64,000 nt of DNA. Origin: Anthoceros angustus (lineage: Eukaryota > Plantae > Anthocerotophyta). The notes under the pieces were generated by a model. It was not told the origin of the DNA, ran no database searches, and saw nothing but the letters and a program-made list of their open reading frames with translations. Positions 11,287-58,812 of this stretch are shown in pieces. The translations under genes and the position numbers were made by a program. The stretch is taken from positions 1 to 64,000 of the forward strand of contig VJWM01000318.1 of assembly GCA_010909165.1 (NCBI GenBank). Reading direction: 5' to 3'. Position 1 is the first letter of the stretch, and each line of letters starts with the position of its first letter.

Positions 11287-14200
11287 ATTGGAGCATAAAG
11301 TTTGGGCAAGCTGGTTTAAGTGAGTTGTTTTTGAGTCCAGGAATTCTTTTGATAGAAATGGTTTGGTGGAAACCATGCAGTTTTTGTTCGATTGAAGCCG
11401 GGTACATGGGATCTTGTCGAAGGCGAGAGGATGCCAGGGAAAAGAAGCGGATCAAATGACCTTCTAGTGAGGAGGGTAGGAGACATATGTGAACGGTAGG
11501 AGATGTCCCTGCCGTGGTGGGAGGTATCCTACCACCGGGAGAAACTCCTACCACGGTAGGCTAAGTGGAGAGAACTCCTACCCCATAGGTATGGGTAGAG
11601 AATGTCCCACCCCGTGGTAAGCCCGGCCTAGCTAGCGTTTGATGACCTCTGGGCGTGAGGTGGCTCCTACCAGTGGGAAAAGGGTGAAGGCAATTAAGCC
11701 AAGGAAGTAGCTTGAGGTTCTTTGCGCACAAGCCGTTGATAGGCTTGGGAGGCAAAGGCACGATTATTGGGGGCCACCACCAAGTTTAAGGGGAAGGCAA
11801 AGTAATTTGCCACATGTGTGGAAGAAGTGAGACATGGTGCTCACGTTGCTGAGATTTTTGCAGGAGGACTGCTAGGTAGAGATGTGTGGCAAGGGTTGCT
11901 GCGGGAAGATGGGCCAAGTGCCCGTAATGGTGGAATTGCAGGATGCTGCTCTAGGTTGGGAGCTCGGCATGCGAGAGAGGAGCGCAAGTGCAAGGATGGA
12001 GCGAGGAGCTCATGTTCAGGTGAGCAGCCACAAGGGTTGCAAGAGGAGGCCATGGCGGTGCCGAGGCACATGGAAGTGCTCAATGGAGTCACGATGGGAG
12101 GATGGCATGATAGGGCCGTGTGTTGAACTAGGAAAGGCCATGGTAGGGCACTCACGGCGCTGAATTTGTAGATGGGCTGCAAGATGGAGGTGTGGCCAAA
12201 CCATAGGAAGGCGATGTTGCGGGTGGGCAACATGGTGAAGGGATCACAACGGTGTGCATCATGATGGCGGAATTTGCAGTGGGGCTGCAAGTCAAAGTGA
12301 AGGGAGGCCGTTGTGGTGGCCGCGAGGAGAAATGGTAGCAAGGAGGTTGATGAGATGTTGTTGAGTGTGAGGAGTTCACCGGGAATAACTCATTTTCGTT
12401 GAGTGTTGTGTAGCCAATTTGGTGTGTTGGACAATGGAAGTGTAAGAACTCAAGTTAAGCGTCCTAGGCGGATCAATGAGATGGGGCCTTTTGTGAGGTG
12501 TTATATTTGCAGTCGCATGAGAACTAATTGGGAGAGTGTTTGGGTGGTGCACCCTACGAAGTGGGTGTAGGGTGGCACTGGACGTAGGGCATGGCACTCC
12601 CTACTGCAGGGAGGGAGGTGCACCCTACGGAGCGGTGTAGGGGGCGATAGCCCTCAGAATGGAGAAGGTGTAGGGTGGTAGTGGACGTAGGGCATGGCAC
12701 TCCCTACCGTAGGGTGCGAGGTGCACCCTCGCGGAGCGTGTAGGGCGGAGGGGTCCTGACAGTTAAGGTAGTACGAGGGTAACAAGGGGACCCTACATAG
12801 GTAGGCGGGGTATGTATGTATATGGGAGGGCATGTAGGGATGGGTAGGGCGGTGCGTGTCCTCATTGTCCCTACCGATGTAGGGAACAAGTAGGGATACG
12901 ATGTAGGGAACAAGTAGGGAGACGGTAGATGGGTAGGATGTAGGGTGGCAGGGGCTCCTGGGCATTAGTTAGGTAGGTAGATAGGTAGGATGAGAGTGTC
13001 TCCCCTCACCGTAGGAGTGGGTGAGGTCTTGGGCAGCGGAGGTGGGGGACACCCTACTTGGATACAAGCGTACAAACCTAGGAAGTTGCTAAAGAGGGGG
13101 ATAGGCAAGGTTGTGGATAAATAGGATATATTAGGAATAATATAGCATAAATATGTGGGGTAGGTAGTGTAGGGTGTGGCCATGCAAGCGGGGTGTGTGA
13201 GGGTGGCACCTAGGAAGCTGTGAATTACGGGAAGAGCTTGTGCATGCAGGAAAGCTAGAGCAAGGACTTGGTGAACGCAGCCCGTGTGTGTGCAAGGAGA
13301 AGGAGGTGTGCGTGCATAAGGAGTTGTGTGAAGAGATTTGAAGCACAAGAAGAGGGCAAGGGCGCTGAATTTTTGTGCCTAGGACCTTGCAAGTGAGGGA
13401 TTTGGGCACATAAGGAGTCAGAGTGGGGACATCAAGTTTGAGCTAGGTGGGACCGTGGAGTGAAGAGGAAGTAAGTGGAAAAGGGCTGAAGTTGCTCTCT
13501 TGGTGGATTTTATGTGGCGAGTGAAGAAATCTCGCACTTGTGTGTGTAGACACCGAGGTGACAACTAGGTGGAACGCAGCATGTGGGCTGCCAAGCTTGT
13601 CTTGTTTGTCGATATTTGAAGGTACAAGATGGTGAAAGCGCACCTAAGAAGCAAGTTGGTTGCTAGGAGCCAGGGAAGAGCAGATGAGATTGCAGCAGGA
13701 GGCTAGGCATCATATGGGATCCGGTATATGGAAGGCCGAGAGGATGACTCGGAGGAGGAAGAGGAAGGCATGGAGCAAGATCCGCCACGGGAGACCTTGC
13801 AAAGTGGAGAGTGTGGAGGCGGTAGGGCCATAAGAGGTTGACCCTACGTCCGTAGGAGGTGTAGAGGGTGGCCCTACATCCGTAGGATCACCGGCGCGAC
13901 GGGCATCATGAGGCAATTGAAGGGGGTGGTAGCTTGGTGTGGGCTCATTGCTTGGGGAGACTTTCTTTAGAGGAGGACACGCTTGTCAACCCGAGAGTGT
14001 GTTGACTAGCTAGATAGGAATGTTGACAGAGCCATTAAGGCTCACATAGGTGAAGTTTGCTAGAATAGAATTTTACCCAAGATGCTTGGATGTCGAACTT
14101 AAAGTCCGACAGGATACACTAGAATAAGTGAGGCGGCCAAGAGCGCGCCTAGGAGGCTCAGTGAGGACCTCCCTATAAAAGGAGGGAGCTTGTGAAGTAA

Positions 14201-18503: not shown

Positions 18504-21500
18504 TGTGGAACGCAAAAGTTTGGGCAACTGGTTTAAGTGAGTTGTTTTGAACAGTCCGAATGCTTTTGATAGAAATGGTTTGGTGGAAACATGCGAGAAA
18601 TGTTTTTGTTCCGATTGAAGCCGGAGTCAGGATGTCGGGAAGGCAGAGAGGATACTTAGGGAAAAGAAACGGATCAAATGACCTTCTAGTGAGGAGGTAG
18701 GAGACATGTGAAGGTGGAGATGTCCTTGGTGGGAGGTATCCTACCACCGTAGGAGAAACTCCTACCACGGTAGGCTAAGTGGAGAACTCCTACCCCCATA
18801 GGTATGGGTAGGAGAATGTCCCACGTAGGTGGCCCAGCTAGCGTTTGATGACCCAACGTGGGTAGCTCCTACCACGGTCGGAAAAGGGTGAAGGCAATTA
18901 AGCCAAGGAAGTAGCTTGAGGTTCTGCTGCTGATAGGCTTGCAGGCAAAGGCCGATTATTGGGGCCACCACCAAGTTTGAGGGGAAGGCAAAGTAATTTG
19001 CCACACGTGTGGAAGAAGTGAGACATGGGCGGTGCTCACGTTGCTGAGATTTTGCGATGGGAGGACTGCTAGGTAGAGATGTGTGGCAAGGGTTGCTGGG
19101 AAGATGGGCCAAGTGCCGTAATGGTGGAATGCGGGATCTGCTGCGGGCTCTAGGTTGGGAGCTCGGCATGCGAGAGAGGAGCAATCGGTGCAAGGATGGG
19201 AGCGAGGAGCTCATGTTGAGGGTGAGCAGCCACAAGGGTTGCAAGAGGAGGCCATGGCGGTGAGGCACATGGAAGTGCTCAATGGAGTCACGATGGGAGG
19301 ATGGCATGATAGGGCCGTGTGTTGAACTAGGAAAGGCCATGGTAGAGCACTCACGGCTGAATTTGTAGATGGGCTGCAAGATGGAGGTGTGGCCAAACCA
19401 TAGGGCGTGTTGCGGGTGGGGTGCAACATGGTGAAGGGATCACAACGGGTGTGCATCATGATGGCGGAATTTGCGTGGGGCGCAAGTCAAAGTGAAGGGA
19501 GGCCGTTGTGGTGGCGCGAGGAGAAATGGGTAGCAAGGAGGGTTGATACGAGATGTTGTTGAGGCGTGAGGAGTTCACCGGGAATAAGTTCATTTATTCG
19601 TTGAGTGTTGTGTAGCCAATTGGTGTGTTGGACAATGAAGTAAGAACTCCAGTTAAGCGTCCTAGGGTGGATCGATCGAGATGGGGGCCTTTTGTGTGAG
19701 GTGTTATATTTATTGTCACATGAGAACTAATTGGGAGAGTGTTTGGGTGGTGCACCCCTACGGAGTAGGTGTAGGGTGGCGGGCGTAGGCATGGCACTCA
19801 CATGGGGAGGTGCACCCTCAAGGGGTGTAGGCGATAGGTGGCCCTACGAGAATGGAGAAGGTGTAGTGGTAGTGGGCGTGGGCATGGCACTCCCCTCCAT
19901 GAGGGAGGTGCACCCCTACGGGAGGTGGCGGAGGGTACGAGTTAAGGTAATGAGTGGGGTATGGGACTCATAGGTAGGCAGGTCCCTACATGTATGTATG
20001 TGGTGGGGCGGTGCGTAGGGATGGGTAGGGCGGTGCGTGTCCCACATGTGTATGTGTGGGGAACAAGTAGGGAACAAGTAGGGAACAAGTGGGGGCAGAT
20101 GGGTGGGATGGAGGTGGGGGGGGCTCCCCTGTGGTAGGTAGGTAGATAGGTAGGATGAGTGTCTCCCTCAGTAGGAGTGGTGAGGTCTCCCTCGTGGGCA
20201 GGGAGTGGTGACATACTTGGATACTTGGCGGTCAGCAGGAAGTTGCTAAGAGGGCTGCAGGCAAGGTTGTGGATAAATGGATATAAAATAATCACATAAA
20301 TATGTGGGGTGTAGTTGTGGCCATGCAAGCGGGGTGTGAGTGGCACCTAGGAAGCTGCAGTGCGAAGAGCTTGTGCATGCGGGAAAGCTAGGAGCAAGGA
20401 CTTGGTGGGAAGCAGCCCATGTGTGCAAGGAGAAGGAGGTGTGCGTGCATAAGGAGTTGTGTGTGAAGTTTGAAGCCTGTGAAGAACAAGGTGAATTTTT
20501 GTGCCTAGGACCTTGCAAGTGAGGGATTTTGGCGCATAAGGAGGTATATCGTGAGGACATCAAGTTTGAGCTAGGTGGGACTGTGGAGTGAAGAGGAAGT
20601 AAGTGGAAAAGGGCTGAAGTTGCTCTCTTGGATTTTGTGGCGAGTGAAGAAATCTCTTAATTGTGTGTAGAACCGAGGTGACAACTAGGTGGAAACGAGC
20701 ATGTGGGCCCAAGCTTGTCTTGTTTGTGCAGTTATTTTGAAGGTACAAGATGGTGGCCGCACCTAAGAAGCAAGTTGGTTGCTAGGGAGCCAGGGAAGAG
20801 GAATGCTTGAGAAGAGCGCAGGTGGAGGGGCACGGTGGGAGGAGACAGCCCAACACATCCGGTATATGGAAGGCCGTGAGGATGACTCGGAGGAGGAAGA
20901 GGAAGGCATGGAGCAAGATCCGCCACGGGAGACCTTCTTGCAAAGGTGGAGGCGTGGAGGCGGTAGGGCCATAAGAGTTGACCCTACGTCCGTAGGAGGT
21001 GTAGAGGGTGGCCCTACATCCGGATCACCAGCGGTGCGGCATCTGAGGTAATTGAAGGGGTTGGTGGTAGCTTGGTGTGGGCTCATTGCTTGGGGAGACT
21101 TTTCTTTAGAGGAGGACAGGCATTAATGCTTGTCAACCCAGAGGTGTGTTGACTAGCTAGATAGGAATGTTGTGAGCCATTAAGGCTCACATAGGTGAAG
21201 TTGCTAGAATAGAATTTTACCCAAGATGCTTGGATGTCGAACTTAAAAGTCGACAATAGGATACACTAAAATAAGAAGTGAGGCGGTGCAGAGGGCGCGG
21301 AGAGGCTGTATGTGAGGACCTCCCTATAAAGGAGGAGCTTGTGAAGTAAAATTATCGTGTCTTGCGCTCCCCTCATGAGTCCTTTGCTCCTTGTGAAGGA
21401 AGTTCGTGCCGCAAGCTACGTAATGCAGTAGAGAGGGAGTTTGCGCGTCGGAGTGCTTGGCGGGCTCGCTCCGCGCCTCTGCAGTTGCTCCTTGTGAATG

Positions 21501-24850: not shown

Positions 24851-25440
24851 CACAGGTGGAGAGTTTGGGTCTTTGCTAGAAATGGTTTGGTGAAGACATG
24901 CAAGGAAATTTTTGCTCCTTTTGAGCGGAGTTGTAGGACCATGTCGGGAAGGCAGAGGATATGCAGGGAAAAGAAACGGGTCAAAACGACCTTTGGTGAG
25001 GAGAAAAGGTAACCTACATGAGTGGTAGGAGGTGTCCTACCACCGTAGAGAAACTCCTACCATGGTGAGAGGGTAGGAGATCCTACCACCGTAGGAGATG
25101 ACCACCGCTAGTGTTTTGATCACCTACCGTGTAGGAATAGCTCCTACCATGGTAGGAGGGTAGGAAGGTATCCTACCGCCGTGGAGTGGTAGGAGAAGGG
25201 AAAACGCCTACCATGGTAGGAGGATGTCCTACCAGTGGGAGATGGGTTTCTAAGGAAGTAGCTTATGTTTTAGGCAGATAGGCTTGCTATATAGAGTCTT
25301 TTAGTGGACTAGATAAATAGGCCAAAATAGGTAATTAAGAAATTAGAGGCTAATTTTCAGTAATTAGAAATTAGAAAATAGGGAAATTGGTATTTTAGTA
25401 TAAGTAAAATTAGGAAACTAACATCAATGGTGGAGAAAGG

Positions 25441-28500: not shown

Positions 28501-29083
28501 TGATTATGCCCTACAAGAGATTGATCCGCTGCAGAATGAGAGGACGGAGAATGTGGCTCTCCATGTCAAGACCGGTGAGCTGGCCTTGAGCGAGATGCTT
28601 ACAAAAGCAAGTGTGAGCATGGAGTATGGCTTGAGGATTACAGAATTGGAGATGGCACAACAACGATTTGCAGCCCATCTTCACAACAAGGTGCTCAAGG
28701 CCACTAACGAGTTGTTGCGACTTCTGAGAGGAGGATGTTGGGACCTCATGATGATGATAGGGAGGCCCTCATGCAAGTCCAACCGGAAGCCTTAGACTTG
28801 GAGAGTGTCCCAAGCACAGGGTGAAGAAACTTGCACTGTGGAGAAGCAAGTGAAGCGGGAGAAGCACGGTGGAGAATCACCCGGGAAGGGGGAAGAAGAA
28901 AAACGACCCGGTAGGAACTCCTACCGTGGTAGGAGGAGTTCCTACCGTGGTAGGAGGGACTCCTACCGTGGTAGGAGAAGGTCCTACCATGGTAGGAGGG
29001 CCAGCAGATTCAAAGGTGCTAGCATGGATTTGACAAGGGAGGCGAGTACCTTGGCCCTTGCAGAAAGAAGGAAGAGGGGTTGA
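25516..29083 (+). pseudogene. LTR-embedded ORF of type-A LTR (basic N-terminus, plant-transposon-protein-like core, coiled coil)
   Basis: Chain of overlapping ORF fragments: KFDMPLF..IQLEWVYGRHWSYTNLELIE..KWRLFTRIVLGLVSNPRVSYF..HLWEVEGLLTSKELDDSKHPF..coiled coil. Confidence 0.65.
28917..28999 (+). repeat. 4 x ~21 bp tandem repeat, each containing the palindrome CCTACC-NN-GGTAGG
   Basis: actcctaccgtggtaggagg-type units; read as SYRGRR repeats; similar blocks at 1420-1495 and 38245-38320. Confidence 0.85.
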
Positions 29084-37700: not shown

Positions 37701-39718
37701 AAGATTGGAAATGGAACGAGAAGTCCGAGAATGCACAACTCCCTAGGAGGATAGGGGAGTTGGAGGAAGAAATGGCAAAGGAGAAAGGCCGTCATGAGGG
37801 TGCGACATATGTTGGCGGTGAGGGAGCGTAGATTTCGGGCTGATTATGCCTACAAGAGATTGATCCGCCAACCGCAGAATGAGAGGACGGAGAATGTGGC
37901 TCTCCATGTCAAGACCGGTGAGCTGGCCTTGGAGCGAGATGCTTACAAAAGCAAGTGTGAGCATGGAGTATGGCTTGAGGATTACGAAGAATTGAGATGG
38001 CGATTTGCAGCCCATCTTCACAACAAGGTGCTCAAGGCCACTAACGAGTTGTTGCGACTTGCCGAAGGAGGATGTTGGGACCTCATGACGATGATAGGGA
38101 GGCCCTCATGCAAGTCCAACCGAAGCCTTAGACTTGGAGAGTGTCCCAAGCGGTGAAGAAACTTCGCACTGTGGAGAAGCAAGTGAAGCGGGAAGGTGGA
38201 GAGAATCACCCGTGAAGGGGTAAGGAAGAAGAAACGACCTGTAACTCCTACCGTGGTAGGAGGAGTTCCTACCGTGGTAGGAGGGACTCCTACCGTAGGG
38301 AGAAGGTCCTACCATGGTAGGAGGAAGAAGCAGCGGATTCAAAGGCGCTAGCATGGATTTGACGGCAAGGGCGAGTACCTTGGCCCTTGCGAAAGAAGGA
38401 AGAGGGGTTGATCTTGCAGAATGGAGCAAGAATCACAAGGAGAAGACCAACCTCCTAACATGGGTGGGAGGCGGAGCTCACTTGCTCCACAAGTGAGAGG
38501 AAGAGGAGAAGCGAGGATGAGCCATGGCTAAGAGAGCCCGGCTATTTTATTGGAGGAAGGAACTCAAGATAGGCATCAAGATAAGGAAGGGATTCATAAG
38601 AAGTCCTTAAATTAGCTTGAAGACATGGGGCAAGATGCCACTTGGGAAGACTTTTCTTTAGAGGAGGCATTAATGCTTGTCACCCGAGAGTGTGTTGACT
38701 AGCTAGATAGGAATGTTGACAGGAGCCATTAAGGCTCACATAGGTGAATTTTGCTAGAATAGAATTTTACCCAAGATGCTTGGATGTCAGAACTTAAATT
38801 CTGACAATAGGATACACTAAAATAAGGAGTAAGGCAGTGCCAGGGGGAGGCTGTATGTGAGGACCTCCCTATAAAAGGAGGGAGCTTGTGAAGTAAAATT
38901 ATCGTGTCTTGCGCTCCCATCCTCCTGAGTCCTTCACTTTGTGCAGGAATTTCGTGCCGGCTGCAAGCCAACGCAGGTCCGGTAGAGAGGAGAACGCCGG
39001 GAGTCGGGTGGAGGCTTGCTCTTTGCGCCACGCGCTCCCTTGTGAATGGTTGTTGTGAATTGTTTTGCTTTGAGTGTGTCGGCTCAAGGAACTCTCGGCT
39101 TGAGGGTAGACTGGGGAAAGACTCTGGAGGTTCTCACGTGCAAACCACATAGCAACCGCCCAAGGAAGAACTCGTTAATTTGGACGGACCCAGCATTGTT
39201 GTATAAGGGCGAGTTGGAATTAATGAGCCAAGAATTGGTGTTAGAGTAGGAGATTGTGGAGGAAGGAAGGGTAGATGAGTAGAGAAGAAGAGGGCGTTGT
39301 TGATTGAGAGTTGTGAGGAGGATTAGAGTGTAGGAAAAACTAAGGCCAGGAGCCTAAGGGACGAATCCCAAATGCAAGTAAGAGGGCTCCCCTGTGGAGA
39401 AGAGTGTCTTAGGAGTAGGGACGTTGCGGTGTGGGTCAGGGGTCCGGCGCCCGTGATAGACACCTTCATTGGGCGTAACGCAATTGTGTGTGTCGTTGTA
39501 GGTTGAGGTTTGGTGAGTTCTGTGAGCGATGCAGGCGAGCTGCTGTAGAGGGAGCGTGAGAGGCGCCTTGCTTGTTTAGAAGGCCGAGGTAGTGTGTAGC
39601 AGTAGTGACGGATTCTCAAGATTATGCTCCCCAAGTCTCATGGGACCCGAAACCCAGCGTTGGCATTTGATGGAAGTGTGGCCAGGGGTGAATCTCGGGA
39701 GCCCAGGTCTCCTCCACC
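34728..39718 (+). repeat. 3' LTR of A1 (type A)
   Basis: Hairpin TGTTTGCGAGGACGCAAACA, PPT, then TGTGG at 34728; ends CTCCTCCAC near 39717. Confidence 0.85.
35400..38233 (+). pseudogene. LTR-embedded ORF, copy in the 3' LTR of A1
   Basis: MEPKWRLFTRIVLGLVSNPRVSYFSTTFLHFLWKITQGA... and the coiled-coil ORF 37794-38156. Confidence 0.65.
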
Positions 39719-44925: not shown

Positions 44926-45719
44926 GCCTTCTGTGAGGCCGCCTCCTCAAGTTTAGGTTGTGGCCTCCTGCACTGACCACTTTTATAAGTCACCCAAGGG
45001 TTAGAAAAGTAACTACCATTCTATCCTGCCCTTGGATGTGTGCCACGTGGCCCTCTCCCACCATTGATGTTAGTTTCCTAATTTCCTTATACTAAAATAC
45101 CAATTTCCCTATTTTTCTAATTTCTAATTCTGAAAATTAGCCTCTAATTTCTTAATTACCTATTTTGGCCTATTTATCTAGTCCACTAAAGACTCTATAT
45201 ATAGCAAGCCTATCCGCCTAAAACATAAGCTACTTTCCTTAGAAACCTATCTCCTACCGTGGTAGGACATCCTCCTACCATGGTAGGCGTTTTCCCTTTC
45301 TCCTACCACGGTAGGAGTTTCTCCTGTGGTGGATACCTTCCTACCCTCTCCTACCATGGTAGGAGCTATTCACCGGTAGGTGATCAAAACACTAGCGGTC
45401 ATCTCCTCGGTGGTAGGATCTCTCTACCCTCGTCTACCATGGTAGGAGTTTCTCCTACGGTAGGACACCTACCACTCATGTAGGTTACCTTTTCTCCTCA
45501 CCGTGGTCGTTTTGACCCGTTTCTTTTCCTGCATATCCTCTGCCTTCCGACATGGTCCTACAACTCCCGCTCAAAAGGAGCAAAAATTTCCTTGCATGTC
45601 TTCACCAAACCATTTCTAGCAAAGAGTGTGGGCTGCAAAGCAACTCATTTAAGCTTGTTGCCCAAACTTTTGCGTTCCACATACTCCCTCCTCATTGTTG
45701 CGTCCTCGCAAACAACAGA

Positions 45720-52699: not shown

Positions 52700-53560
52700 A
52701 TGATAATGCTAACACTTCATTGCATTATCATTATGGTGACTTCAAGAGAAAGATAGATTCAATGGAAGGATTATGACATCGGTCATTGAGAATGCGAGGA
52801 GCTTTGCGGCAAAGAGACCTTTGGGGCATCGTCGATGGATCAATTCCAAGGCCACACGCCCGATTTGACGCGTGAACTTCAACCTTCCAGGGCCTTGAGG
52901 GGCGAGAAGATTTTAGGTGGACTTTCTCAACATATGGTGAGACATGTCGCAAAGACCTCCAAGGATATGTGGACTCACCTTGCTCAATTATATTCATCTC
53001 GAGATGTAATGAGTATTGTTGCGGCTTCACGTAACCGCAACCTCTCAATGAAGGAGTCCGACACCATCGAACATCATGTTAATGCATTTCGATTGGCACG
53101 ATCCCATTTGGAATCTTCAATGGCGTACCTATCTCGTAGATGGAGGCTTTCATTCTCTTATCTTCATTGCCACCTTCTTATAGGGCTTTCATTACAACTC
53201 AAAATGCGTGATTCGCAATGTCGGAAAAGCTGCGGATGAAGATCCAAATGAAGAGCGGACATCGTGTTTCCGAACTTATTGGAGCATTGCTACAGGAGGA
53301 GGCAAGCATCATCACTCCGAGCCAACAAGCAGTGATGTATTCACAAAGGGTAGAGGAAGAGGAGGCGAGGCGAGGCCGAGGTTCTACTTTCCATGACCCC
53401 CATATCCTGCACATACTTTCCATGATGGAGAGGCATCTTCTTCAACACGCAAGAGGTAACAAGAAGGCGGGATTATATGTAATTGGTGCGTAATCCCAAA
53501 TCACATGGAAAAGGATTGTCGTAAGAAGAAGAATGGGGAACCTCAGGAGGCCCCACAGCT
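52700..53560 (+). pseudogene. gag: Copia gag
   Basis: LRMRG..RDLWGIVDG near 52790, KDMWTHLAQLY, CCHC knuckle (CNWC..PNHMEKDCRKKK) near 53480-53525. Confidence 0.75.
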
Positions 53561-53568
53561 AACATTGC

Positions 53569-54090
53569 GTGAAACAATCTTCCTCAACTCCAGCGGTGCT
53601 CCTGTGCTTGGCTTCTTCCAAGCCCTCCAATACCTCATGGTACTTAGGCAGTGGAGCTACTTCACATATTTGTTACAATGTAAACTCTTTTGAGTCTTAC
53701 TCACCACCACGGGACATCTCCTCCGGAGATGATCACAACCTACCCATTGCGGGTGTTGGTTCAGTTGTATTCAAGTGTGATTCAGGTCAGGTTCTTCATC
53801 TTCATCAAGTCCTCCATGTTCCTTCAATGTGCAAGAATCTAGTATCAGCTGCAAGTCTTTGTCAAGAACACACTCTGCAGGTGATCCTTTATGCAGATAG
53901 TTGTCTTCTCTCTTTCATAAGTGATAGAAACTATACAATCTGCACAGGCACTTTAGATGATGGTCTCTATAGATTGTCAGTACAAGTGGGAGCCACCCAT
54001 TCTGCTAATGTTGCCATTCCAAACCCAGCGACACCTACCCAAACCATGCTTTGGCATTGTCGCCTTGGTCATCCTAATAGTCAAAATTAA
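53569..54090 (+). CDS. pol: Copia protease and GAG-pre-integrase region
   Basis: 173-aa ORF: WYLGSGATSHIC (catalytic D replaced by G), VLHVPSMCKNLVS, LYRL, LWHCRLGHPN. Confidence 0.85.
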   Translation: MKQSSSTPAVLLCLASSKPSNTSWYLGSGATSHICYNVNSFESYSPPRDISSGDDHNLPIAGVGSVVFKCDSGQVLHLHQVLHVPSMCKNLVSAASLCQEHTLQVILYADSCLLSFISDRNYTICTGTLDDGLYRLSVQVGATHSANVAIPNPATPTQTMLWHCRLGHPNSQN

Positions 54091-54199
54091 TCCAAATGTC
54101 TAAGGGAGCTTTATATAGAACCCTTGCCTTGCAAAGGTTGAACACCTACCTTGGTGCGAATCTTGTGTCCTCACTACATCAAGAGCCTTTCAAAATAAA

Positions 54200-54380
54200 T
54201 CTCCACAAAGGGCCAAGTCACCTTTAGAGATAGTGCACATGACATTTGTGGACCCTTGTCTACACCCTCCTTTAGTGGTAGTAGATATTTTTGACCTTCA
54301 CGGATGATTTCTCTCGTTTTGTCTTTTCCTACATCGAAAAACAAGAGTGATGCCTTTCCTTCTTCAAGGACTACACGAAA
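54200..54380 (+). pseudogene. pol: Start of Copia integrase core
   Basis: HxDICGP..PSFSGSRY..TFTDDFSRFV..KSDAF. Confidence 0.8.
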
Positions 54381-54700
54381 TGCCTCATGTAGTGCATTGT
54401 GCACAAAACCAATCTCCTTGAGTGTCGTCCGGAGGTTATGAACCTTGTCCATGAGTGGAGGTTGTCTTGACATCCTTTGTCATGTGGACTACTCTCCCCC
54501 GGGTTGCTCGCCATTTTCTTCTTGCCTTCACAGCTGCCTCCTGCGGAATCTTGGTTCATTCTTGATTAGTTCTATGTGGAACTTCCCTTTGGTGTACTTC
54601 CCATCTCAAGCGTGAAAGCAAACACATGTCGCGATGCCTCCAACAACTCCTTTAGGGCCGTTGATTGCTCTTCAACTCGGGCAACCACTCATGTGGTGTG
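54380..54700 (-). pseudogene. pol: N-terminal start of reverse transcriptase
   Basis: LKELLEASRHVFAFTL, then across a frameshift MGKYTKGKFHIELIKNEP; typical Gypsy pre-RT segment. Confidence 0.6.
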
Positions 54701-54839
54701 GCTCGGATGGCACGCTTCCTCTGCTTTCTCCTTGCCCTCAAACTCGCCTTCTCCTGTTGAGATGCGAGTCGAATATCCTTCACCAGACCCTGCTTCAACC
54801 CGCCTTCTTGGTTTTGAAGTTGGTAGCGACTCAGTAGCT

Positions 54840-55725
54840 AAACCAGTCATCATGTTCATGTCAAATGCTTGCCCAAGCAATCGACAGTTCCTTCTCGGTC
54901 ACTCCGGTGTCTTGTGGCTCCGGCAAAATCCATGGCCAACTCCCTCTGTGGTGGCTCTCCCAAAACCTCGCCATGTCATCACCACAACGCAGGGCCATGG
55001 TTCCTGAAGGCGTAAGACTTGGACTTGGACACAAAGGTTGGCCAAGCCGCCATGGGGTGTCCGGGCGTGTTCACGAAGTCGGCGGCAACGGTCTTGATGA
55101 CTTGTTGGGCATGCCTTCCGATGCTAGCACATCCTTGACAACATGATTAGGTCGCTTGGTGAGCGACCTCGCACACTTCAAATGTTCCAAGGAGCAAGGT
55201 TAGTCCACATGGACCTCAACCTATGAGCCCTCGAACCAAATTAGGCATCCAATAGAAGCTCGACCCAACACTCCTCGGATCGTGGCAAAATCCTCCGAAC
55301 TTGCTTCTTCACGCTCATGCATCTTGGCACATTCTCCAACATGTATCCACAAGGCCTTTCTTGCCCCTTTACGGATCAAGCGCAAGATCCTCATCAGTCA
55401 TAGAACAATGCTGTTCGTGGATCCTTCAGACCTTGACCCTTGCCTGCGAGGATAGTCCTTGACACTCCCAACTGCGATGACAAGGTCCACGGTTGCCCAA
55501 GACAACTCAAATGGGACAACCCTATCATGCGAACATCCATCGGCCTTGGTAACCCTTCGACTCCCACGTCGGAGGTTAGGTACTCCCCATCAAGTCTCTT
55601 ACGCGCACGTGACACAATCCTTGCTTTTGGATCCGGGTCACAATGCACGTATCTTCGCACTTTGATGCCACACTTTAGCGCTGAAGCGATGCCTCCAAAG
55701 AGTTCCACGACTATGCCGTCTTCCA
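54840..55725 (-). pseudogene. C5 cytosine DNA methyltransferase domain inside the retrotransposon polyprotein
   Basis: Motif I VVELFGGIA (55720-55690); IV VDLVIA(G)WECQGLSLAGKGQGLKDPR..LFYD (WECQ 55459-55470); VI YMLENVP (ENV 55328-55336); VIII LDA*FGSRAHRLRSMWTN (55260-55200); X LLGQAFDMN (54854-54880). Confidence 0.88.
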
Positions 55726-56179
55726 GGTCGCCATGTGATGACAGGTGTTTAGGTCACAGGCTCAACCCTAGGCAAGAACTTACGAGTTCTCGGCTCATAG
55801 GACCTTGGTCCTCTTGCACCATCCTCCACAGCTTTTGCACGGCTCATTTGCAGTCACCAGCTCCGTCCGGTGACTTGAAGAACCTCCTCAGGGTGGTTGC
55901 AACCCTAGCTTGTCTTCCTCCTCCTCGTGAAATCCTCCATCGGTCGATTGCGGTTGTTAGACACACGCCAAGAGGTTCAAGCACGTATGGCGTGTCCTTC
56001 ACTCTGGCCAAACCGGGTAGACTGTTGGCAATGAGGTTCTCATGATCCTTGCCATGCACGAGAGGGATGCGGGCAATCCGTTCATCGGTTTTGCTCCAGC
56101 TTCTCCAGCCGGTCGATAGTAGGCATCTCGTCCACAAATCCACCATGACTCGGTTTGTACAAAGCGTCCGCTCCCAAGA

Positions 56180-56470
56180 CATCAAATGTATATCGGTGAC
56201 CAAGCGGTGTACCTCGACAAAGGTGAAGTCTGCTGTTCTTGGTTTGAATGAAACCTGTACCTTGTCACCCCCAACACATGCTCCGTGGTCCCAGCTGCGG
56301 TCTGGATCTTCCACTTGGTTTCCTTCAACCTTTCTTGGTGGAGACCCAACGCTTCCTTCACTCTTCTTCCAACGATCACCGGCTGTGCTCCGGTGTCAAT
56401 CAACACCCTCCTTGGTGCGAATCCATTGATTTCAATGTGCCTCTCCCGATTGTTGACCAAAGCCACCCCC
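56180..56470 (-). CDS. pol: Retroviral-type aspartic protease
   Basis: IEINGFAPRRVLIDTGAQPVIVG; DTG at 56397-56389; KIQTAAG downstream. Confidence 0.88.
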
Positions 56471-56899
56471 ACTCGTGCAGCATTCCGCTTCTCCACAGAG
56501 ATGCTTGGTTCGGAGGTCAGCAATGACATCATTGCTACCTGCTGTGGCAAATCTTGGACACTTGCTTCGTCTTCAAGGGTTGTCAACATCCGAGTCAAAC
56601 CCACGACTTCCTTCACGCTCAACCCCATGTCTTGTTGAAACATGGCATCTCAGGCTTTTGTGCCATCTCCGTATCTGCGCATGGGTTTCTCCACATCGCC
56701 CACTCTGGACTTTGATGTTGCTCCCAGTTGCTCCTGTTGGCTCAAACAAGCGACTTTGGCATCTTGGCATAGGTTCGGGAAGAGGATCCCGAAGCTTCCT
56801 TCCGTGTCTTCCGCACTGCAGGTGTCAAGACGTCCTCTTCTTCCTCTGAGCTATCTTCTCTCGTAGCTGGCAGAGGTTTCTTCCCCTTGCCCTTGGATC

Positions 56900-58100
56900 T
56901 GGTCACAGTCGCCATGTATCCAAGCTTGTGCTCATCTTCTTCGTCCTCTGATGATGAACTGCTGCTCTCCTTGATCTTCGCCGCACCAACTTCTCCAGCT
57001 TTGCGAGGCGTGCCACGTAGTCCATCGTCTTCTTTGATGCTTCCGTTTCTTTTGTCCACGGGACTTCGGTGCCTCCTCCACAGGCGCCTTTGCTCTTCGC
57101 GATTTTGTGGATGAGGTTGGCCGGATGCATTGGCGGGGTTGCTGCTCGATAACCCGTGAGCCGCAATTCGGATGCTTCTCCCAACATGCCGCTTCATTGT
57201 GCCGTACCTCCCACCTAGGGCATGGCTCCTCACCCTTGACTCCTCCGAATGCATGCTCGCACTCATGAGGGGAATGGTCCGTCCTCGGCACCTCACGCAG
57301 GGCTCGTCACTTGGGGCGTGTGGGTGGCTTGTCTCGCCGAGCTCCTCCACTCGACCTCCGTCGGTCATGTCCACCACTCCTACTTGTCTTTGGAGTAATC
57401 ACTTGCAACAAGAGAGAAAGTGTCCTATCTTGTCGACCATCTCGTACACTTCCTTGAGGGTGTGTTGTTGCCGTCTTGTGCACCGCTTGTTGCACCTTCA
57501 TGCGCGCATATGGCAATGCTGCAAGTACTTCTCTGCGGCGATCGGTCACTCATGATCTTGGTGTCACGTACCAAGCGGTCGATTCTTGATAAGCCATCTT
57601 GGCGGTCTCGACTTCATCTTGAAGTGTGTCACCGGAGATCTTCTCATCCGTGCTTGCGAAACTCCGGCGGAAGATGTCAAACATCTCTTGATGGGATCGT
57701 GCCCACTCGGTGCCACTTTCCCCTTGGTTCCTCGGAGCTTGAGCCTACTCACTGGTCCTCGGATGCTCAACAACCTCGCCTTGTGCTCGCGATAACGCCA
57801 ATGCTTCATCCCCAAGTACTTGCATTTGGATGAAGCCGTATCGCTTCGTGTATCCGGTCTTCAATTCCATCTCCGCACACACTGCTTCTCGATGAAGTCC
57901 TCCGGTGGCAAGGTGCCGCTCGTCTGTGAACAACTCCATTCGATCCTTGTCTCCTCCCATCTTGGCGACTCCAAGAGACAAGTCCTCCTCGCTTCGCTTG
58001 AGTTGTCGGCGGCACTAACGTGTCTTGTGTGTTGCCACTCACGGATCCTTCAAAGATTGTTGATTGTGTCTGGGTTCCTCCGTCCTTGGTGGTACCAAAA
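56900..58100 (-). pseudogene. gag: gag of the DNMT-bearing Gypsy
   Basis: PPEDFIEK-like motif, LGDEALA..YREHK, knuckle-like C..C..H near 57470-57520, then YMATVTRSKGK before PR. Confidence 0.6.
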
Positions 58101-58560
58101 TCGAGGTTACTTCTCTCTTGGTCGGGACTTGAATTCGCTCGATGGACTTGCTGGTTGGTAGCTCCGTCCGGATCGAGTGTGTCGCATGCACTCCAGGCGG
58201 TTAGTGGCTAGATCAAACCCTTAATCAAGGTTAACACACCCGCTATCTTAGATCGTGATTAGTGAAACCTCTAAGTATCTATGCATGTTAAAATTGCATA
58301 CAAATACTCTGCAGGCTATATGTCAAAGCTGGGTGAGTTGGATAGCAAAGGCATAAGAACTCCAGTTAAGCACCGTGGGGTGGATCAGTACTGGATGGGG
58401 TGCCAACCTAGGATTTTGACAGAAAGTGAAATCATGACATACCCATGTCTATCACTTCCCTTATCCCTTGGAATCAGGGCCCAAGAGTAAAATACTCTTG
58501 TTTCTCCCTTGGTTGGTTGGCCTTAAAGGCCAGCCCCTTAGGCCTCATTCCTCTCCTTGG

Positions 58561-58689
58561 TAGGCTTCTTCCTCCTCTCCTTGGCCTTGGACTTGGCTTC
58601 GCCTCCTCTCCTTGGCCTTGGACTTGGGCTTCTTGCCTCCTCTCCTTGGCCTTGGACTTGGGCTTCTTCCTCCTCTCCTTGGCCTTGGG
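58561..58689. repeat. ~33 bp tandem repeat x3.6
   Basis: Unit CCTCCTCTCCTTGGCCTTGGACTTGGGCTTCTT at 58571, 58602, 58636, 58669. Confidence 0.9.
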
Positions 58690-58812
58690 CCGGTCCTCTC
58701 TGGGCCTCAAGCCTTGGGCACACTTTAGAGTCCCTTGCCCTGCTTGCAAGAGCTGGCGTGCGTCGTAGCCTCGCCTCGCCTAGCATTTTCTAGCGCCTAG
58801 GGTCAGCATCAA

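Follow-up and report, generated by a model that had tools for sequence, protein, structure and literature searches.

A truncated Gypsy retrotransposon in Anthoceros angustus DNA whose protease and reverse transcriptase start flank a DNMT3-type cytosine methyltransferase, and a stop codon after the methyltransferase in many relatives

A Gypsy fragment in a window of retroelement DNA

The window, by which we mean the whole 64,000-nucleotide stretch of contig VJWM01000318.1 that was analyzed, is retroelement DNA in which no host gene was seen. On its minus strand lies the 5' half of a Ty3/Gypsy element that runs from a gag-like region through an aspartic protease (PR) and a C5 cytosine methyltransferase (DNMT) to the start of the reverse transcriptase (RT), where it meets a Copia fragment of the opposite orientation. 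The features are as follows.

54530..58300, minus strand: 5' half of a Gypsy-DNMT3 retrotransposon (gag-PR-DNMT-RT start), ends approximate
57000..58200, minus strand: gag-like region, frameshifted, without a Pfam match
~57310-57180, minus strand: two zinc-knuckle-like stretches in the gag-like region, placed by eye across frames and inferred from P0269 (zf-CCHC) and L015
56260..56520, minus strand: aspartic protease (PF13975, E 1.8e-06; PF13650, E 2.4e-06)
54824..55723, minus strand: DNMT3-type C5 cytosine methyltransferase domain, unpermuted, motifs I-X, from a frameshift-aware profile alignment
54694..54823, minus strand: DNMT-RT linker, the site where relatives have a conserved stop
54534..54693, minus strand: N-terminal RT segment (HEWLPEL...SRHVFAF...GKYTKGKFHIELIKNEPRFRRRQ) and end of the element (matches to P0302, E 8e-5, and L002, E 2e-4)
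52900..54500, plus strand: adjoining Copia fragment, outside the element (gag, Pol beta-barrel, and GAG-pre-integrase by Pfam; start of the integrase core by eye)

The protease motif IDTGA occupies 56400-56386 on the minus strand (Pfam gag-asp_proteas, E 1.8e-06). This protease is 43% identical to that of the Closterium protein P0269, and no close relative of it was found in the metagenome contigs. The sequence-only reading had placed a methyltransferase between a protease and an RT; the PR-DNMT-RT order stands, with the qualification that the RT in the window is limited to its N-terminal ~50 residues (54693-54534), recovered as two collinear HSPs to the Closterium protein P0302 (E 8e-5). Past ~54530 the sequence is that of a Copia element on the plus strand (Pol_BBD, E 3e-19; gag_pre-integrs, E 4e-8), and the two elements meet head-on at 54500-54535, the Gypsy element cut at the RT start and the Copia element in its integrase core; no terminal repeat separates them. 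This junction may be a deletion or a mis-assembly (chimera). Because the copy adjoins the Copia fragment, the RT core, RNase H (RH), and integrase (INT) are absent and the 3' repeats are missing too; cut off where RT begins, the copy is incapable of transposing by itself. Neither an LTR pair nor a tRNA was found in the window, no Rfam family exceeded its gathering score, and the absence of the 3' half explains why it holds no paired terminal repeat of the element, including split repeats arranged as A-coding-B-A-B. Upstream of gag, short imperfect tandem repeats (unit ~30-36 nt, CCAAGGCCAAGGAGAGGAGG core) lie at 58560-58690 on the minus strand and are possibly part of the 5' repeat or leader.

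The copy is heavily frameshifted. In all five repeat pairs compared within the window, indel events exceed substitutions (137 vs 48, 129 vs 88, 93 vs 62, 255 vs 135, and 55 vs 38), and decayed relatives of the element carry mostly stops, with 0 to 3 frameshifts. In view of this indel excess and the few frameshifts of the relatives, we reject the idea that decay of an ancient copy suffices to explain the frameshifts, which we infer to be largely uncorrected long-read error in an unpolished assembly. They consequently say little about the age of the copy, and the indel excess across the window calls for caution with other frameshift-based findings in this record.

Short variant contigs along gag, PR, DNMT, and the pre-RT segment numbered 1934, 3659, and 1537 in three runs labelled as three organisms, counts in which one run (X1) may represent the source sample itself and in which depth is not copy number. 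In each of these runs, the contigs cover gag-PR-DNMT-pre-RT in 27 to 29 of 30 bins; another run (X4, for which an RNA origin is a guess) gave 10 contigs, which do not bear on expression. These counts suggest that the family of the window element is present in many copies in related species.

Elsewhere in the window, the element has Athila/Tat-like neighbors, identified from motifs by eye. A motif of 40 to 55 nt is common to three places in different elements (58332-58386, 19622-19673, and 12421-12460 (+)) and is similar to the Pol III promoter that lies within 5S rRNA genes, in the manner of Cassandra- or SINE3-like elements; Rfam gave no 5S match for it. Neighboring Gypsy families also contain tandem repeats with a 21-nt unit and a palindromic CCTACC..GGTAGG core (28895-29011, 38222-38317, 45228-45302, and 25203-25256). 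These repeats form long hairpins, and they match miRNA models below threshold.

The methyltransferase domain and its class

The window domain contains motifs I, IV with its catalytic Cys, VI, VIII, IX, and X in unpermuted order. On the minus strand, motif I (ELFGG) lies at 55705-55691; motif IV begins as WECQGLS at 55470-55450, with the catalytic Cys codon at 55464-55462, and continues in another frame as AGKGQGLKDPR at 55447-55415; motif VI (YMLENV) follows at 55345-55328, motif VIII (FGSRAHRLRSMWTNL) at 55240-55196, and motif X (LGQAFDMN) at 54877-54854. We aligned the domain in a frameshift-aware manner, with X at breaks, to a profile built from 7 intact homologues (333 columns). The alignment extends over profile columns 3 to 329 at 55723-54824 with a score of 480, compared with a maximum of 137 among 32 other stretches of the window and of 115 among 10 codon shuffles, which bears out the earlier claim that C5-methyltransferase motifs occur here in that order on the minus strand. 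The window domain matches 58 of 86 invariant profile columns and contains 10 inferred frameshifts and 3 stops.

Detection of the domain by standard models was less straightforward. The sequence-only reading had proposed a frameshift-aware search with Pfam DNA_methylase as a check; the homologue profile just described recovers the domain across its frameshifts, whereas the Pfam model matched none of the three single minus-strand frames. We note that this model is weak on intact homologues as well, with 1 of 7 above the curated cut-off. A single window frame with stops written as X nevertheless retrieved 7 intact Gypsy polyproteins among 1781 candidates, and a search of the PDB with a single frame matched exclusively DNMT3A/B/C chains (26 of 26; human DNMT3B, E 5e-4).

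The same affinity emerges from the homologues. Profile A1, made from the chlorophyte-type homologues described below, ranks DNMT3A (E 6e-14) ahead of DRM (1e-9) and HhaI (7e-4), and the domain of metagenome locus L015 also ranks DNMT3A first (5e-8) and matches Pfam DNA_methylase at E 1.8e-13. An AlphaFold model of homologue P0003 (pLDDT 72) has its best structural matches in DNMT3A/B (E 2e-15, TM 0.63); single-sequence structure prediction of the L015 domain was of low confidence (pLDDT 33). The unpermuted motif order of the window domain is unlike that of DRM, and the catalytic Cys is present in all 37 rows of the alignment. Judged by these similarities, the window enzyme is DNMT3-type, nearer to DNMT3 than to DRM, DNMT1, or bacterial methyltransferases. 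Two of the DNMT-bearing polyproteins (P0053 and P0097) have precomputed matches to PF01585, which we take to be the G-patch domain.

Domain layouts and the stop codon in relatives

The first homologues have the layout RT-RH-DNMT-INT-PHD, with RT ahead of DNMT in all 139 RT-bearing proteins among 270 homologues. The named carriers are chlorophytes (Haematococcus P0078 and Scenedesmus P0187), and the rest include many metagenome proteins. Loci L004, L034, and L036 together with P0001-P0270 make up a large chlorophyte-type set of Gypsy elements with this layout, and Pfam DNA_methylase frequently fails to detect their DNMT. The protease of L036 is encoded upstream, in a frame overlapping pol. A second layout is represented by P0269 (Closterium, GJP34393.1) and P0217, both with gag-PR-DNMT order and both also matching the window protease. 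A search with these two gave 31 proteins, 25 of them from Closterium. Of the 31, 8 have PR-DNMT, a count to which P0217 and the match of P0269 to itself can be added, and 4 have DNMT-RT; Closterium gene models with DNMT-RT-RH are among the 31 as well. A metagenome scan yielded at least 69 loci; those listed have no DNA-level similarity to the window, and among them DNMT precedes RT in 27 (20 of them with PR) and RT precedes DNMT in 2. Split repeats arranged as A-coding-B-A-B were present in 2 of 11 loci examined (L039 and L042). At E<=1e-30, the DNMT family has 474 representatives, part of which were inspected.

Because PR-DNMT-RT order is common to the Closterium proteins and at least 20 metagenome loci, we regard the DNMT as integral to the element. 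The comparison thus came out against an independent insertion and upholds the earlier proposal that the methyltransferase between PR and RT is the element's own. In a quick tree of 76 rows, with L068 left out and without host DNMT3, DRM, or Klebsormidium sequences, the chlorophyte layout forms one clade (support 97) and Closterium another (100), with phage-like enzymes outside (100). The window row falls inside the retroelement DNMT group on a long branch (1.18), with at most 42% identity to any row and no supported sister in that tree.

The relatives with DNMT ahead of RT share a further feature, an in-frame stop codon between the two domains. In L015, a Gag-PR-DNMT frame of 1369 codons is followed by one TAG and then, in the same frame, by 1047 codons of RT-RH-INT-PHD; the downstream RT-RH-INT order was confirmed in both L015 and L027. 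Among the loci listed, all 36 that span the site have an in-frame stop after Gag-PR-DNMT. Motif X and the RT start could both be located in 19 of the loci listed, where the two lie in one frame in 15 and the other 4 have indels; a stop is present in each of these 15 same-frame loci and is the sole stop in 10. Since 29 of the 36 stop-bearing loci are near-copies, they amount to about four independent lineages. The near-copies are those of the L003 family, which has kept the stop in 29 of 29 copies. Stop sites between DNMT and RT, with their contexts, are as follows.

L015, 5083-5091: TAG CAG TTA
L013, 2081: TAG CAG TTA
L016, 4661: TAG CAA TCA (context also in L060)
L003, 11234: in the family, 17 TAG CAA CCC, 10 TAA CAA CCC, and 2 variants
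L001, 1291: TGA CAA TTA
L002, 875: TGA CGG, at the position of the L001 stop and in the same clade
L027, 848: TAG GGG with a stem-loop, z -4.0

Three types of readthrough signal have been described: type I, UAG-CAR-YYA, active also with UAA and UGA; type II, UGA-CGG; and type III, UAG-GGR with a structure (PMC3542737). The contexts in the relatives correspond to all three types as that review defines them, with the limit that CAA CCC of the L003 family misses the last base of CARYYA and that the stem-loop at L002 is not significant (z -1.3). As a background rate, 51 of the 1618 stop-like triplets counted across seven such loci are followed by a context of readthrough type. An in-frame stop in such contexts suggests that the DNMT is likely produced at the level of Gag.

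The stop after DNMT is not universal across the relatives. L005 has no stop in the 128 codons past DNMT before its contig ends, and DNMT runs on into RT in four gene models from Closterium, these being models and not DNA. The linker of the window copy, too noisy for its frame to be followed, contains stop-like triplets at 54840 (TAG CTA) and 54740 (TGA GGG), neither of them canonical, and we see about an even chance that the window's family uses the stop.

Proposed function and comparison with known systems

A transposon that carries the enzyme that normally silences it poses a puzzle that dates from 2018. With moderate confidence, we read the window copy as the 5' half of a truncated Ty3/Gypsy element whose family likely takes DNMT into its particles and likely uses it to methylate either its freshly made cDNA or the site of insertion. 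Ribosomes would pass the stop at a rate of a few percent, and the protease would release the DNMT, such that a particle would hold Gag-like amounts of DNMT and far less RT and integrase. The DNMT would then methylate the cDNA or the site of insertion, with CG as the probable context if SymbioDIRS-Dnmt3 is a guide, and the new copy may thereby resemble host DNA or set its own chromatin state. Selection appears to keep DNMT in proportion to Gag and to restrict RT and integrase, pointing to a job inside the particle and not to a passenger. The intact domains of L013, L015, and L016 and the short stop junctions make activity and readthrough directly testable, and the window copy itself is merely a noisy, truncated member of its family.

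Base composition leaves no trace of such methylation. The CG observed/expected ratio is 0.78 in the element and 0.63 in the window (CHG, 0.63 in the window); CG is thus no more depleted in the element than in the window, and a CG-loss footprint of self-methylation is not seen. Nor does the depletion of CG and CHG tell a land plant from a streptophyte alga, since Klebsormidium methylates CHG too (PMC5890265).

The DNMT might be integral and selected for a different target, binding or methylating the RNA of the element, serving in structural or targeting DNA binding, or damping transposition to the benefit of the host, a reading that we consider rather unlikely. Expression at Gag level would suit a role in RNA or particle structure, and the element shows no extra CG loss. 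Non-cDNA roles are among the options listed by the 2018 authors, who saw no de novo methylation of DNA when the Klebsormidium domain was assayed in yeast (PMC5890265). That inactivity of KnitGypsy-Dnmt3 is called inconclusive by the same authors, and SymbioDIRS-Dnmt3 does methylate CG de novo in yeast (PMC5890265). Also against this reading are the catalytic Cys, retained in 37 of 37 rows, the window domain's own motifs I, VI, VIII, and X, and the fact that the nearest structures are the DNA-methylating DNMT3A/B.

The stop of the relatives could instead be a true terminator, with RT-RH-INT expressed via spliced RNA, an internal promoter, or reinitiation and the DNMT still on the Gag side. A precedent of sorts is Candida Tca2, whose gag-UGA-pol junction, placed in yeast, did not support readthrough on its own and proved to contain a minor promoter (PMC2194720). 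We consider this improbable for the elements here, given that none of the 15 same-frame loci (among the loci listed) changes frame in passing the stop, that L001 and L002 have contexts of two different known readthrough types at a single site, and that the downstream frame of L015 has no methionine ahead of the RT motifs. That the DNMT is a one-off insertion of a host or viral gene into a dead Gypsy element, or an assembly chimera, is extremely improbable even in an indel-rich window with a Gypsy-Copia junction at ~54500-54530 that may be a chimera or deletion, since the same order recurs in Closterium and at least 20 loci, the DNMT is intronless, and contigs of three runs cover gag, PR, and DNMT alike.

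The spread of the DNMT over chlorophytes and streptophytes suggests an old, widespread family that is often missed by Pfam. A broader picture seems to us possible rather than probable: one old green-lineage Gypsy-DNMT3 family would exist in two layouts, with DNMT after RNase H within Pol in chlorophytes and in the Gag-protease frame in streptophytes, including land plants. Several lineages of the latter would have a programmed leaky stop, using among them all three viral signal types, and their particles would be loaded with Gag-level DNMT that writes 5mC on the cDNA before integration. The family in the window would then be an abundant, recently active, and divergent land-plant member.

The nearest described system is KnitGypsy-Dnmt3 of Klebsormidium nitens (de Mendoza et al. 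2018, PMC5890265), and the label "streptophytes (Gypsy-DNMT3)" appears in a recent preprint that also names EpiLTRs of Cymbomonas and Euglena (bioRxiv 10.64898/2026.05.21.726589). In a full-text literature search that was thin on subscription journals, we found no description of Gypsy-DNMT3 elements in land plants, of the RT-RH-DNMT-INT-PHD layout, or of readthrough in DNMT-Gypsy elements; the available portions of bioRxiv 10.1101/2021.11.30.470311 and PMC13468544 hold no DNMT-Gypsy content. The likeness to the Klebsormidium element claimed by the sequence-only reading held up, the window having an intronless DNMT in a Ty3/Gypsy coding region with PR, DNMT, and RT start collinear. Compared by description only, both are Ty3/Gypsy elements with an intronless, unpermuted DNMT3-type domain that keeps its catalytic residues. 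KnitGypsy-Dnmt3 also has split repeats arranged as A-coding-B-A-B (PMC5890265), like L039 and L042, and its host methylates CHG in addition (PMC5890265). It differs, again by description only, in that its DNMT shares one ORF with RT and RNase H (PMC5890265), whereas that of the relatives lies in the Gag-PR frame ahead of the stop. We conclude that the window element is a divergent, truncated member of the known streptophyte Gypsy-DNMT3 kind.

Other systems share parts of this arrangement. The Closterium elements (P0269, P0289, and P0302), which are unannotated, resemble the window in their gag-zinc knuckle-PR-DNMT and DNMT-RT-RH order, P0269 in the motif IV string WECQGLS and P0289 in a similarly short DNMT-RT linker, but are just 28 to 43% identical to it in single-frame segments and form their own clade. 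The chlorophyte-type elements have the same DNMT family and a PHD finger after integrase, as in the relatives, but place DNMT after RNase H, inside Pol. SymbioDIRS-Dnmt3, SymbioLINE-Dnmt, and the EpiLTRs are likewise retroelements with C5 methyltransferases, but, as their reports describe them (PMC5890265; bioRxiv 10.64898/2026.05.21.726589), they are of the DIRS or LINE class or have a DNMT4-related domain with DAM and a chromodomain. A single in-frame stop before the polymerase is shared with tobamoviruses, tobraviruses, Tombusviridae, and gammaretroviruses (PMC3542737) and with Tca2 (PMC2194720); in the relatives, where sequence context is what suggests readthrough, the stop comes after gag-PR-DNMT and leaves an enzyme domain on the abundant side. 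This family-level readthrough signal and the two layouts are what the analysis adds beyond known Gypsy-DNMT3 elements.
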